DNA of 53,880 nt from a virus (IMGVR_UViG_2617270943_000003:1-53880); one strand, 5' to 3'; positions 7,743-51,687 are shown, counted from the stretch's first letter. Numbers and translations are program-made. The notes: a model not told the origin generated them from the letters alone.

Positions 7743-7997
7743 TCATTCCTCCGGCAATGCAATGTCATAAATGTCGCCGTATTCGTCAGCGCGTTTAATG
7801 AATCCTTTGCGGATCAATGAATTTAAAGCGTCAACAGTAGTATGCAGTGGCAGTTCGCACACTTTTGCGATCTCTTCGCGTGAAGCATGTGCGCGGCCTT
7901 TGTTGTCTGCCTTTTCTGCAAACGCAATTAAGACAAGTTTTTGGATCGGGCTGTTAAGTTTTACGTTCCATACTTCATTCATCATGTGCATACTCAT
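7743..7997 (-). CDS. Small HTH DNA-binding protein (first gene of leftward operon, Cro-like position)
   Basis: 84 aa, winged-helix-like segment SREEIAKVCELPLHTTVDALNSLIRKGFI; divergent from the repressor gene; AGGAGA Shine-Dalgarno-like sequence upstream. Confidence 0.45.
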   Translation of the reverse strand: MSMHMMNEVWNVKLNSPIQKLVLIAFAEKADNKGRAHASREEIAKVCELPLHTTVDALNSLIRKGFIKRADEYGDIYDIALPEE

Positions 7998-8303
7998 CTT
8001 GTTTTTCTCCTATGGTTAGAGTGAACGCGCGGGCGGGCATCCCATTAGCATTAGATAGCAGTGACTGACCGCTGAACAGATCCCGCCGTTGCGTGATATT
8101 TGTTTTTCGCTTCGCAGCGACACCGGGTTTTTAAAGAGCTTAAGGTATGTGCCTTTTTGTGCCTTCCGTTATCTTTTTCCTTGCGTCTTTGCAAGTATGG
8201 CCTTACCTTGTCTGCAAGTTTACAAAATGGAATTTTAAGATCAAGGCTTAAAATACACGTTTTGTGACTTGCATCAAACTTTTTGAGGTTATAGGGTAGC
8301 GAC

Positions 8304-8951
8304 ATGAAAACAAAATGGTATGACTTAGCAAAGCAGCTCATGCGGGCGCAGGGCATGAGTCAGGATTCACTCGCAGATCTCATGGGGATAACTAAAGGCG
8401 GCCTGTCACACTGGCTTAACGGTCGCCGCGAGCCAAATCTTGAAGATATTGCGCGGATTATGCGGGCGCTTGGGCGTCGTCAGTTCACTGTTACACATGA
8501 TGGTATGGTCATTGATGATTCTGTTTCTAATACACTTCAGGCCGCACCGCCGCGTGATTTAGGTAGTTACCCGGTTATTGACTGGAAGGACACAGTAAAC
8601 AATATGGATGACACAAGGCGATCAGCATTACCACACGTTACGACTAGCGTTATTTGTTCAGATGATAGTTACTGGCTGGTTGCCAAAGGTGAATCAATGA
8701 ACGCGCCGCAGGGGTTGAGCATCCCGGCGGGGACGATGATACTTGTTGACCCGCACGCGCCAGCTATTGACGGCAAACTGGTTATAGCCCAGCTTGAGGA
8801 AGGGCAGATACCGACGTTTAAACAGTTGATTATTGATGGAGGTCAAAGGCTTTTACGTTCGCTCAATCCGCTGTATCCGCCAATCCCTATGAATCCAGAA
8901 TCAAAAATTATAGGCGTGGTGGTTGATGCGAAGATCGTAAACCTGCCATAA
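8304..8951 (+). CDS. cI: CI-like prophage repressor (XRE HTH + LexA/S24 peptidase domain)
   Basis: N-terminal HTH (MSQDSLADLMGITKGGLSHWLNGRREP) and C-terminal S24 autopeptidase motifs (AKGESM, catalytic Lys in VVDAKIV). Confidence 0.9.
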   Translation: MKTKWYDLAKQLMRAQGMSQDSLADLMGITKGGLSHWLNGRREPNLEDIARIMRALGRRQFTVTHDGMVIDDSVSNTLQAAPPRDLGSYPVIDWKDTVNNMDDTRRSALPHVTTSVICSDDSYWLVAKGESMNAPQGLSIPAGTMILVDPHAPAIDGKLVIAQLEEGQIPTFKQLIIDGGQRLLRSLNPLYPPIPMNPESKIIGVVVDAKIVNLP

Positions 8952-8956
8952 ACATT

Positions 8957-8981
8957 AGCCGCCGAATGGCGGCTTTTCTTT
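8957..8981 (+). terminator. Rho-independent terminator after repressor gene
   Basis: Hairpin AGCCGCC-GAAT-GGCGGCT followed by TTTCTTT. Confidence 0.55.
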
Positions 8982-9073
8982 GCCTGGAAAACACCAAAAC
9001 GTAAACAGAAAACGTTATTTATTATTTAAATATCAATGGCATATAAAATATTTTAAAAAAGTATACAAAATGG

Positions 9074-9102
9074 ATTGACTCGGTGTTTTACGGGGCGTAT
9101 AT
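9074..9102 (+). promoter_or_regulatory. Sigma70-like promoter (TTGACT-17bp-TATATT) for the rightward early operon
   Basis: Consensus-like -35 and -10 with 17-bp spacing; flanked by the inverted repeat TTGACTCG/CGAGTCAA (9074-9111) and preceded by GTATACAAAATGG. Confidence 0.4.
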
Positions 9103-9451
9103 TGCGAGTCAAAGGAAGGGCGCAGGTAACAAAAGCAACTTCCTGGCACTTTAAAAATCAGGCTTAACACCTTGTCAACCGTGGAGTAACTCCCCGATGG
9201 GGGACCGAAAGCGGCACTGATAACAAGGCGCATGGGGTGTTTAAAGCGTTACATCCCCCACGAAACCGCACGCAAGGCGACGAGTCAGCTTGCTTGGAGT
9301 GAGCAAGGTCACGCCGGGAACGGCGATGATTGCGGGATTAGTTGAAAGATGTTAAGCCGCTCATTAACAATCTGGTCAGCCGCTGGAAGTGCGGCAATTA
9401 ACGAAGATGATTTTTTATTAAGTGTCATCAAGGATATACGGAGATCAGATT

Positions 9452-9742
9452 ATGAGCGTTACAATTATATATGGTAAATGTGATAGCAAAATGAATGCCA
9501 GGGAACGCAGAAGGATAAAAAGAGAAAACGAAAGAAAATCATCACCTGCAATCAATAAAACAGACAATGTGGATAAAGCTATTCGATTTGCAAACGAGGA
9601 AAGATGCAAACCAAATAGCATTAAAGAACGTCGCAAAGGATCAGTAAAATGGTATACGGAAAATGAAAGCGGCAGCTACTACCACGCAACGCAACCACGC
9701 CATTTAGGGGAAAAACCCCTGGATAAAGTCCGCTATCATTAA
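9452..9742 (+). CDS. Candidate N-like antitermination protein (arginine-rich motif)
   Basis: First gene after the early promoter; basic 96 aa protein with N-terminal arginine-rich stretch NARERRRIKRENERK; preceded by a ~340-nt untranslated leader. Confidence 0.35.
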   Translation: MSVTIIYGKCDSKMNARERRRIKRENERKSSPAINKTDNVDKAIRFANEERCKPNSIKERRKGSVKWYTENESGSYYHATQPRHLGEKPLDKVRYH

Positions 9743-9891
9743 TACAAAATGTAAACATCCGGAGATGACATTATGGTTATTCAGGCGCTTCAATTCAAAC
9801 TGGCAGTAGCGGAAATGCTTCACGATGCCGAAATGTGGAGCGCCGCGAATAAAGCCTTATACATAGTGTTAACAGCACGGGAGATTAAATA

Positions 9892-10533
9892 GTGAAAACA
9901 GAGTTACATAAAAAGCTATGGACGATTCAGCAAACGCTGAACGCGCCGAAAAATCAGCGTAATAATTTTGGTGGATATAATTACAGGTCGGCGGAGGATA
10001 TTTTAGAGGCGGTTAAACCACTGCTTCAAAATATCACGCTGACTGTTAGTGATGAAATTGTCCTGATCGGCAATCGCTATTATGTGAAAGCAACGGCGAC
10101 GCTAAGCGACGGTGAAGACGTAATAGCGGTAACTGCTTATGCCAGGGAGGAAGAAAGCAAGAAGGGTATGGACGCTAGCCAGCTAACAGGAGCAACATCA
10201 AGTTACGCGCGTAAATATGCTTTGAACGGTTTATTCTGTATAGATGATGCTCGCGATCCTGATACTGATGCTTACGCGAAGCAGACAGGCCAGCAGCCGC
10301 GACAACAGAAAAACCCACCAAAACAACAACCGCAGCAGAAGAAAGCGCCGCCAAATCCTGATGAAGTATTAGCACGTTTCTGTGATGCAGCAGCGAAAGC
10401 GCAGGACGCTAACAAGCTGCGTGAAATATTTGGCAAATGCTGGAAATTACTACCGGAAGGATCGGAGCATCGAATCAAGGCAAAAGATGTTTATGACATC
10501 CGGGTAGCAGAGCTTAACGGGGAGATGGGTTAA
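9892..10533 (+). CDS. erf: ERF-family single-strand annealing protein
   Basis: NFGGYNYRSAEDILEAVKPLL...SYARKYALNGLF is the ERF signature; GTG start with GGGAG Shine-Dalgarno-like sequence. Confidence 0.85.
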   Translation: MKTELHKKLWTIQQTLNAPKNQRNNFGGYNYRSAEDILEAVKPLLQNITLTVSDEIVLIGNRYYVKATATLSDGEDVIAVTAYAREEESKKGMDASQLTGATSSYARKYALNGLFCIDDARDPDTDAYAKQTGQQPRQQKNPPKQQPQQKKAPPNPDEVLARFCDAAAKAQDANKLREIFGKCWKLLPEGSEHRIKAKDVYDIRVAELNGEMG

Positions 10534-15916: not shown

Positions 15917-16677
15917 GCGGGCTTAGAAATTGGGTGGTGTGGTCGCTGTATGACGGCAGCGGGTACGCTGTTAAAGATTGGGCGGACGCTGGTTATAAAT
16001 GTTATTGCTTCAACTATGACGGCGCTAATCACGGTGATTATGACGGGGTAAAAATAATTCATCCAAATATTGAATATGTTAACGTCTGGATTGATAGCCA
16101 TTTTCTGGTAATGTTCTCCCCTGAATTGTCTGTATATCCAGATCCTGACATTATCCTGGGCTTTCCTCCATGCGACAATCTCGCCGTTTCAGGCGCTCGC
16201 TGGTTCGCTGATAAACGGAAAAAAGACCCTGACTTCCAGGTGAAGGCGGCGCATAACGCAAAACTGGTAGAAAAACTGGCGAATATGCATAACGTGCCGT
16301 GGATGGTGGAAAATCCGGTGGGCGCACTGTCAACGTTATGGCGTAAACCGGATTTTATCTTCAATCCGTGCGCTTACGGTGGCTACCTGCCGGAAGATGA
16401 TAAGCATCCCGCTTTCCCGGAATACATTGCCGACCGCGACGCCTACACGAAGAAAACTTGTATTTGGTGCGGGAATGGATTTAAGCAGCCGCTATTCCGT
16501 CCTGTGCCGATGCCAGATGAATGGGAAGACAGTAAGCAGCACGCGAAGTTAGGCGGAAAATCAAAGCGAACAAAGATGATCCGCTCACTAACGCCGCGTG
16601 GCTTCGCCCGTGCTGTATTCCTGGCTAACGACCGGGCCATCAATCGTACTACGCTCAACCGCGTTTTGCCGGACTGA
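15913..16677 (+). CDS. Putative DNA cytosine-5 methyltransferase-like protein
   Basis: Motif IV-like GFPPCDNLAVSG (PC catalytic dipeptide), motif VI-like MVENPVG, motif I-like SLYDGSGYA; short at 254 aa. Confidence 0.5.
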   Translation: MSGLRNWVVWSLYDGSGYAVKDWADAGYKCYCFNYDGANHGDYDGVKIIHPNIEYVNVWIDSHFLVMFSPELSVYPDPDIILGFPPCDNLAVSGARWFADKRKKDPDFQVKAAHNAKLVEKLANMHNVPWMVENPVGALSTLWRKPDFIFNPCAYGGYLPEDDKHPAFPEYIADRDAYTKKTCIWCGNGFKQPLFRPVPMPDEWEDSKQHAKLGGKSKRTKMIRSLTPRGFARAVFLANDRAINRTTLNRVLPD

Positions 16678-16699
16678 AGTTTACAAAATGGCGTCATTG

Positions 16700-16715: not shown

Positions 16716-16836
16716 TAATGGCGCTTTGCACCTTGTTAGCACGTATCCATTTTGTATACTTCAAGCAAACAAAATGCTCTTTAAAAATCCGGCAGCGCTG
16801 AAATGCGTAGAAATCACCTGAAAAGGAGAGAGCATT

Positions 16837-22559: not shown

Positions 22560-22644
22560 ATCACAAAGTATACAAAATGGCATTGTTCAGGCAGTGCCGT
22601 TTTGTTATATGTAAGCCACGGAAAGACGGAGGGGAGGCAAGAAA

Positions 22645-42290: not shown

Positions 42291-42458
42291 TTTGGGCCTC
42301 CTTCGTTGGTACTGCTTTTCTTCTTGCTTTCTATATACATCTTGTTGCGTACTATGTGAAGCCATTTTGTAAACTAGCTATAATCATTGTGATGAAGATC
42401 TCATTTTTCGCGTAGAAGCGCGTAAAGATATATACAAAATGTAACTTATGGGGGTTTT

Positions 42459-51510: not shown

Positions 51511-51687
51511 TTTTTAATCCTCATTCTTGTTAGCTCGTCCGGTTCATCCGGTGGTTTAAATATCCGACAAAACCACATTTCGTATATTGACATAAATCAA
51601 TAAATACATTTTGTATGCGTCAAAAATGTAACACAGATCACAAAATGGTAGAATTATTCCGTTAATTAACATAATGGAGTCATTGCG

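Follow-up and report, generated by a model that had tools for sequence, protein, structure and literature searches.

The window analysed here is the whole 53,880-nucleotide stretch of viral DNA IMGVR_UViG_2617270943_000003:1-53880, and the locus in question is the interval 9061-9742, where an early promoter, a long untranslated leader and the antiterminator gene gp17 follow the phage repressor gene and its terminator. Both in nucleotide identity and in the order of its genes the window matches the type phages of the mEpimmI group, and it thus belongs with the mEp021-like temperate coliphages: positions 8950-9760 are 91-99% identical to seven group members (MagusPhagus, mEp010, mEp515, mEp021, mEp013, mEp044 and mEp554) and are also matched as a single-copy prophage in 35 of 5426 complete E. 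coli genomes. The genes around the locus agree with those of mEp021, mEp010 and mEp013, and the leader is 93.6% identical to that of mEp021. The mEpimmI phages are Nus-dependent and non-lambdoid. The features that bear on early control are the following:

8304-8951, plus strand: CI/LexA-type repressor gene, a Rep021 homologue (Pfam HTH_3, E=5e-13; Peptidase_S24, E=4e-19; 'cI repressor' in the mEp010 and mEp013 annotation)
8957-8974, plus strand: intrinsic terminator of the repressor transcript (t1 or TERM_1 in relatives), a GC-rich stem of 7 bp with a T run after it
9075-9103, plus strand: early sigma-70 promoter TTGACT-17-TATATT, the lambda pL analogue, matching 10 of 12 consensus positions
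9110-9451, plus strand: untranslated leader of the gp17 transcript, about 342 nucleotides, its start estimated from the -10 position and its end set by the ATG at 9452
9359-9370, plus strand: nutR1 boxA (boxA number 2), GCTCATTAACAA, with the consensus GCTCTTTAA(C/T)AA in every short-leader relative
9379-9395, plus strand: nutR1 boxB hairpin GCCGC-TGGAAGT-GCGGC, -10.1 kcal/mol, with stem covariation
9452-9742, plus strand: gp17, an N-like arginine-rich antiterminator of 96 amino acids (PHROG 271, E = 1.3e-13)
8107-8139, minus strand: nutL on the leftward early transcript, with boxA at 8139-8128 and boxB TCGCT-GCGA-AGCGA at 8120-8107
16776-16808, plus strand: nutR2, with boxA at 16776-16787 and boxB GCGC-TGAAAT-GCGT at 16795-16808

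Early transcription and the gp17 antiterminator

The repressor gene lies directly upstream of the control region in the same orientation, and its terminator is annotated as such in mEp021, mEp010 and mEp013. An earlier reading of this DNA from the sequence alone (the sequence-only reading) had placed a near-consensus promoter downstream of that terminator; the order is as it described and the promoter exists, one base beyond the position it gave (9074-9102). TTGACT-17-TATATT is the best promoter-like site within 7800-10200, and both of its hexamers are unchanged in 33/33 haplotypes, the haplotype set being 33 distinct relatives in a 2.2-kb alignment. The GC-rich untranslated leader of about 340 nucleotides that had been predicted is likewise present, with a GC content of 50-58% across 9150-9350 as against 27-33% upstream and 31-37% downstream.

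The first open reading frame (ORF) after the promoter, 9452-9742, carries the arginine-rich segment NARERRRIKRENERK at residues 15-29 and matches the PHROG family annotated 'anti-termination protein N-like'. It is 93% identical to the Gp17 protein of mEp021, and the arginine-rich motif is identical in the two. The mEp021 Gp17 is an experimentally characterized N-lambda-like protein for early antitermination (PMC11893012, citing Valencia-Toxqui et al. 2023, Arch Virol 168:92); according to PMC11893012, it promotes terminator read-through in dependence on host Nus factors and acts via three nut sites, nutL, nutR1 and nutR2, and its arginines 17, 19, 20 and 24 are kept in all 48 genomes studied (PMC11893012). 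R17, R19, R20 and R24 are all present in the Gp17 of the window. Because the ORF has the described arginines, the 93% identity to mEp021 Gp17 and the PHROG 271 match, the sequence-only reading was correct in its main interpretation, an N-type arginine-rich antiterminator as first gene, and that interpretation is already published: the system of promoter, nut-bearing leader and N-like gene is on record for mEp021 and its group, and in its main content the window adds one more group member and no new idea. In mEp021 the three nut sites, like antitermination by Gp17, are reported from experiment; for the window antitermination is predicted. The Gp17 family covers a narrow range, its 31 clusters being at least 60% identical throughout, and the few clusters that name a source are from E. 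coli or uncultured Caudoviricetes; no Gp17 relatives were found in GTDB species genomes. Between gp17 and erf there is a small ORF of about 39 amino acids (9774-9893) whose position is kept across relatives (mEp021_18 and equivalents).

In a search for boxA-like sequences, GCTCTTTAAAAA turned up on the minus strand at 8128-8139 and on the plus strand at 16776-16787, with close variants at 9146-9157 and at 9359-9370 (the latter also written GCUCAUUAACAA). The three nut sites share a common layout, consisting of boxA, (T/C)C(T/C)GG, two to four bases and a short C-G-closed hairpin, with a boxB loop of the U-GNRA-U/A or GGAAG type. The nutR1 boxB takes the forms TGCAC-TGAAAT-GTGCA, GCTAC-TGAAAT-GTAGC, GCAC-TGAAAA-GTGC and TCGC-TGAAAT-GCGA in relatives, and the nutL loops across relatives are GCGA, GTGA or GCAA. 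In an alignment of 12 hairpins (nutR1, nutR2 and nutL variants) both sides of the boxB stem change in four of its five pairs, with a covariation score of 0.548 versus 0.174 in shuffles (0/500 shuffles as high); sliding the pairing register by 1-3 columns as a control gave no two-sided changes. The boxB type moreover tracks the arginine-rich motif of Gp17, RERRRIKRENERK going with the GGAAG loop and RARRRMKRAAEQ with the GAAA loop. From the shared nut layout, the boxB covariation and the tracking of loop with protein motif we infer that nutR1 lies at 9359-9395. The sequence-only reading had allowed for a nut-like site with a boxB hairpin in the leader; a nut site is indeed present, and its boxB is the hairpin at 9379-9395, neither of the two hairpins which that reading had named. 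In the published arrangement nutR1 precedes gp17, the repressor gene has nutL upstream of it, and nutR2 is found downstream of gp32 (PMC11893012). Its position and its presence in every group member indicate that the site at 9359-9395 is probably the published nutR1.

Such a comparative definition of boxB supplies natural specificity pairs for studying the recognition of RNA by arginine-rich motifs. In L046, L047-L049, L059, L081, L087 and L088, variants of the motif (RARRRMKRAAEQ, RERRRLKRAGK and RTIRRMKRRAAEQ) are paired with differing boxB stems and loops. A 9-bp helix between the nutR1 spacer at 9369-9377 (AAUCUGGUC) and 9443-9451 (GAUCAGAUU), just before the gp17 AUG, occurs in the minimum free energy (MFE) fold and recalls the translational control of the lambda N leader; it was set aside on account of one-sided changes in relatives.

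The closest described system is thus that of Gp17 and nutR1 in mEp021, which belongs to the same phage group and has the same locus, three nut sites and the order repressor - terminator - promoter - leader - gp17 - erf - ssb; the window differs from it by allelic differences only. The layout is also like that of lambda (cI - tImm - pL - nutL - N): a strong promoter preceded by a repressor gene and terminator of like orientation, a long untranslated leader, boxA then boxB, a GNRA-type boxB loop, an arginine-rich first gene and, for the mEp021 group, Nus-factor dependence (PMC11893012). It is unlike lambda in that homology to lambda N is missing at the Pfam threshold, in the three nut sites of the mEp021-like group, in a boxB whose stem is closed by C-G around a U-GNRA-U/A or GGAAG loop, and in the large structured element that lies upstream of nut in the window. 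The RNase III hairpin of lambda sits between nutL and the N ribosome-binding site.

Once repression lifts, host RNA polymerase would start from the promoter at 9075-9103 and transcribe the leader, presenting the boxA (9359-9370) and boxB hairpin (9379-9395) of nutR1, while gp17, as first gene of the transcript, would yield the 96-amino-acid protein. The arginine-rich motif of Gp17 is expected to bind the GNRA-type boxB loop, and Gp17 together with host Nus factors on boxA would convert the polymerase to a terminator-resistant form; the same conversion would take place at nutR2 (16776-16808) and, on the minus strand, at nutL (8107-8139).

An optional structured domain in the leader

Most group members carry, in addition, a module upstream of nutR1 that consists of a second boxA-like sequence (9146-9157) and a folded domain (9161-9358). 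This optional and highly conserved domain of 198 nucleotides is the only part of the locus with potential for novelty, and is modestly interesting. Its elements, all on the plus strand, are:

9146-9157, plus strand: boxA-like sequence number 1, GCACTTTAAAAA, just ahead of the folded domain and differing from the nutL/nutR2 boxA at one position
9161-9358, plus strand: optional closed multi-helix RNA domain, 198 nucleotides, from single-sequence and alignment folds
9161-9169/9350-9358, plus strand: helix P1
9175-9179/9341-9345, plus strand: helix P2
9180-9184/9258-9262, plus strand: helix P3
9191-9204, plus strand: hairpin P3a
9234-9257, plus strand: hairpin P3c
9266-9270/9331-9335, plus strand: helix P4
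9289-9307, plus strand: hairpin P4b
9308-9330, plus strand: hairpin P4c
9232-9345, plus strand: ORF of 37 amino acids inside the domain, annotated in GenBank as mEp021_16 and similar

The leader as a whole folds with an MFE of -113.9 kcal/mol (z = -3.85 versus shuffled controls). The domain is closed by a 9-bp stem, GGCTTAACA with TGTTAAGCC, and the single-sequence fold (z = -3.4) and the alignment fold give the same structure for it, with 99.8% paired cells in the domain alignment. The two hairpins singled out by the sequence-only reading do exist, at 9191-9204 and 9312-9325, and are arms of this domain, carried by two sub-domains within it, rather than boxB. In the L047 lineage P4b shows three double and one single compensatory change (CUUGCU/AGCAAG to AUCACU/AGUGGU); the other changes within helices turn G.U into G-C or C-G into U.G, and 9 of the 11 variable paired columns retain pairing. 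Several G.U pairs favour the plus strand as the RNA. The end bases of the 10-nucleotide loop of P3c, 9241 and 9250 (U and U), change jointly in three haplotypes, to C/C or A/C, which hints at a non-canonical contact.

The domain is not universal. About a quarter of relatives are without it; the leaders of mEp013, mEp044, mEp554 and several relatives from metagenomes are shorter by about 215 bp, and a survey of 42 IMG/VR loci gives two classes of spacing between the -10 hexamer and the ATG, one of about 348 and one of about 135 nucleotides, with 110 in the most divergent. The domain is found in 31 of the 35 E. coli prophages and in 31/5426 E. coli genomes, where it is a single copy per genome and always at this prophage locus. 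A repetitive or mobile intergenic element (a miniature inverted-repeat transposable element, MITE, or an ERIC-like one) is ruled out by the single copy and single context. A distant-mode search of phages, plasmids and E. coli genomes detected it at this locus alone, with no copy in plasmids, and exact-pattern scans of IMG/VR, GTDB genomes and metagenomes revealed no other context apart from two exceptions: L089, a random soil match, and L095 (OQVL01004386.1). In the latter, a metagenomic contig (about 6822 onward), the leader match ends in the middle of the nutR1 boxB loop and gives way to unrelated DNA with the appearance of an AAA-ATPase/ComM-type gene. A truncated prophage or a chimeric assembly is the probable explanation of L095.

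Where it occurs the domain varies little. Its nucleotide diversity (pi) of 0.011 is the lowest of any segment in the 2.2-kb alignment, below codon positions 1 and 2 of gp17 (0.030 and 0.023) and the third positions of gp17 and the repressor gene (0.097 and 0.133). That the block should encode a small protein, the 37-amino-acid ORF product, with the RNA structure incidental, is highly improbable. Almost every haplotype keeps the ORF uninterrupted, GenBank records annotate it and a weak AAGG precedes its ATG, but its variable sites number 7, 4 and 6 by codon position, without an excess at the third; the eight-base patch that preserves P4b alters five of seven residues (LAWSEQG to ITWIEWC); the stop codon is lost in one haplotype; conservation spans all 198 nucleotides and not just the 114 of the ORF; and neither Pfam nor PHROG gives a match. 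It is probably not a gene.

A domain of this kind just downstream of an early promoter calls to mind the put RNAs of phage HK022, and the sequence-only reading had offered a protein-independent antitermination RNA as its alternative to a nut site. HK022 putL and putR are, like the domain, structured RNAs made early from early promoters, those of HK022 affecting elongation; the put RNA is about 70 nucleotides long with two stems, and acts without protein in a phage lacking N (PMC9378689). The placement of the leader structure is that of HK022 putL (PMC9378689), but the domain is a multi-branch structure of 198 nucleotides, it coexists with an N-like protein encoded by the same phage, and it is dispensable, mEp013, mEp044, mEp554 and other relatives being entirely without it. 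Comparison with the HK022 pL-nun and pR regions gave only chance-level matches. With no similarity to HK022 put, a different architecture and viable phages of the same group that lack the structured block, the put-like alternative did not hold up, and there is only the slightest chance that it applies.

Could the block instead be a relic of mosaicism without function, for instance a nut region that was duplicated and took up foreign DNA, whose low diversity stems from recent recombinational spread? Imperfect direct repeats of boxA + TCNGG (9146-9162 and 9359-9375) flank it, long leaders alternate with short ones in the manner of alleles, and within-group diversity is limited. Against this, compensatory changes keep P4b and 9/11 variable paired columns still pair, the diversity of the block is below that of the non-synonymous codon positions of both flanking genes, and the block is kept beside highly diverged gp17 and nutR1 alleles, remaining about 94% identical next to gp17 alleles with a substantially different protein and a different boxB. 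A mere remnant thus appears unlikely.

The two boxA sequences differ in their behaviour. BoxA number 2 has the consensus GCTCTTTAA(C/T)AA in all short-leader haplotypes and deviates from it (GCTCATTAA, ATTCTTTAA or TCTCTTTAA) in nearly all long-leader ones, as seen in a comparison of window positions 9359-9370 with their equivalents in L003, L023, L031, L036-L038, L044, L046, L087 and L088. BoxA number 1 (also written GCACUUUAAAAA) is missing in short-leader relatives and almost invariant in long-leader haplotypes. No boxB-type hairpin (C-G-closed, with a U-GNRA-U/A loop) follows boxA number 1, the stems predicted downstream of it being weak (-3.5 kcal/mol in total); folding of P1 would place it within about 20 nucleotides of the nutR1 boxB. 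The relaxation of boxA number 2 in the phages that bear the domain hints at a cis effect on nut/Nus assembly or on gp17 expression. In ribosomal RNA operon leaders a boxA is likewise followed by a long-range processing stem. The window shares with these only the resemblance of a boxA-like sequence that directly precedes a domain with a long-range closing helix (9161-9169/9350-9358), and its leader is unlike them in lacking both sequence similarity and a boxC.

It is tentatively proposed that the domain and its own boxA-like sequence make up an undescribed functional RNA, an optional module that is either cis-acting or an excised non-coding RNA with a trans function. Acting in cis on the plus-strand leader, the domain would not be an antiterminator itself but may tune gp17 expression, leader processing or stability, or the assembly of the nut complex, a role that would be accessory. 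In the available parts of the mEp021-group literature searched, which excluded the 2023 primary paper, no mention was found of the domain, of its presence/absence polymorphism or of the second boxA.

An RNA cut from the first early transcript, for example at P1/P2, might alternatively act in trans or as a decoy with an anti-defence or regulatory function. The domain is self-contained behind its 9-bp closing stem, is optional in the manner of a moron (an accessory phage gene) at 31/35 E. coli prophages, shows extreme sequence conservation that includes a little-paired stretch of 30 nucleotides (9204-9233), and would be the first RNA made on infection. It has, on the other hand, neither promoter nor terminator of its own, and stretches complementary to it elsewhere in the phage genome are at chance level (18 11-mer matches, some overlapping, versus about 9 expected). 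No related RNA family was found for it in Rfam: with Rfam 15 there is no match at the gathering score in the whole window and, at E up to 10 over 8900-9900, nothing inside 9104-9340, the weak match that reaches the leader (antisense_SR1, 9341-9517, 13.6 bits versus a gathering score of 45) being chance-level. ARAGORN found no tRNA or tmRNA, and by a hand count GGA motifs of the CsrA type are not enriched in the leader (about 9 versus about 7.6 expected). A trans-acting or decoy RNA is accordingly conceivable, though on the doubtful side.

Taken together, there is high confidence that 9061-9742 serves a temperate coliphage of the mEpimmI (mEp021-like) group as its early control region, of the lambda N type with nutR1 and gp17, the extra leader domain presumably acting in cis. 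A number of points weigh against parts of this interpretation. The Pfam N_peptide model scores Gp17 at 15.9 bits, below its cutoff of 27.9, and no solved N protein matches Gp17 by sequence. For the domain, the minus strand gives an almost equally good fold (z = -3.34), a single lineage, the L047 type, supplies the three double compensatory pairs, and most helices never vary and are hence structurally uninformative. Viable phages without the domain exist within the same immunity group, and its low diversity could reflect recent recombinational spread and not constraint. The existence of long-leader (mEp021, mEp010, mEp515) and short-leader (mEp013, mEp044, mEp554) phages within one immunity group does provide an easy test system, in which such pairs can be asked what role a highly conserved structured RNA plays ahead of a nut site.

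Operator candidates at the early promoters

Two repeated elements accompany the promoter and may be considered as regulator sites:

9075-9082 and 9105-9112, plus strand: inverted repeat with left arm TTGACTCG and right arm CGAGTCAA, gap 22
9059-9075, plus strand: 17-nucleotide motif AAGTATACAAAATGGAT adjoining the -35 hexamer, repeated in the window, a candidate operator or regulator site

The sequence-only reading had regarded the inverted repeat that flanks the promoter as a plausible operator. The repeat is present, one base from where it had been placed, but it makes a weak operator candidate. That TTGACTCG-N22-CGAGTCAA is the operator of the repressor is suggested by its bracketing of the promoter, by its perfection in 19/33 haplotypes and by the chance of about 0.02-0.04 of finding such an inverted repeat at any given promoter; perfect 8-nucleotide inverted repeats with a gap of up to 30 number 51 in the window versus 23 in shuffles. 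The arms match at 8/8 positions in those 19 haplotypes, at 7/8 in 10 and at 6/8 or fewer in 4, and no compensating changes between arms occur among the 33; the changes in the other 14, which include the same-immunity phages mEp021 and mEp010, are thus one-sided, and the palindrome is missing in L087 and L088, the most divergent relatives. Six of the eight left-arm bases are supplied by the -35 hexamer. From the centre of one arm to that of the other there are 30 bp, a spacing that does not suit a single helix-turn-helix dimer site. The other early promoters, finally, are without a similar repeat but do have the 17-nucleotide motif. An operator function for the palindrome is, on balance, improbable.

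The 17-nucleotide motif is the better candidate. It has 8 matches in the window at up to 3 mismatches versus 0.26 expected, with copies at 8216-8232, 16677-16693, 16745-16761 (exact and inverted), 22566-22582 and 42360-42376 and weaker ones at 8593-8609 and 51604-51620, following the pattern AAGT(A/T)TACAAAATGG... It occurs at each of the three control regions associated with a nut site and at two further places. Its 14-nucleotide core, AAGTATACAAAATG, is unchanged in all relatives shown, and the three 3' bases differ in L031, L038, L087 and L088. The motif is probably a binding site of the repressor or of another regulator.

A further promoter-like sequence, TTGTTA-16-TATACT, lies at 16733-16760 with nutR2 about 15 nucleotides downstream, and its -10 hexamer overlaps the exact inverted copy of the motif at 16745-16761. 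This arrangement suggests that 16733-16808 may hold a third early promoter under repressor control, which would have a nut site of its own.

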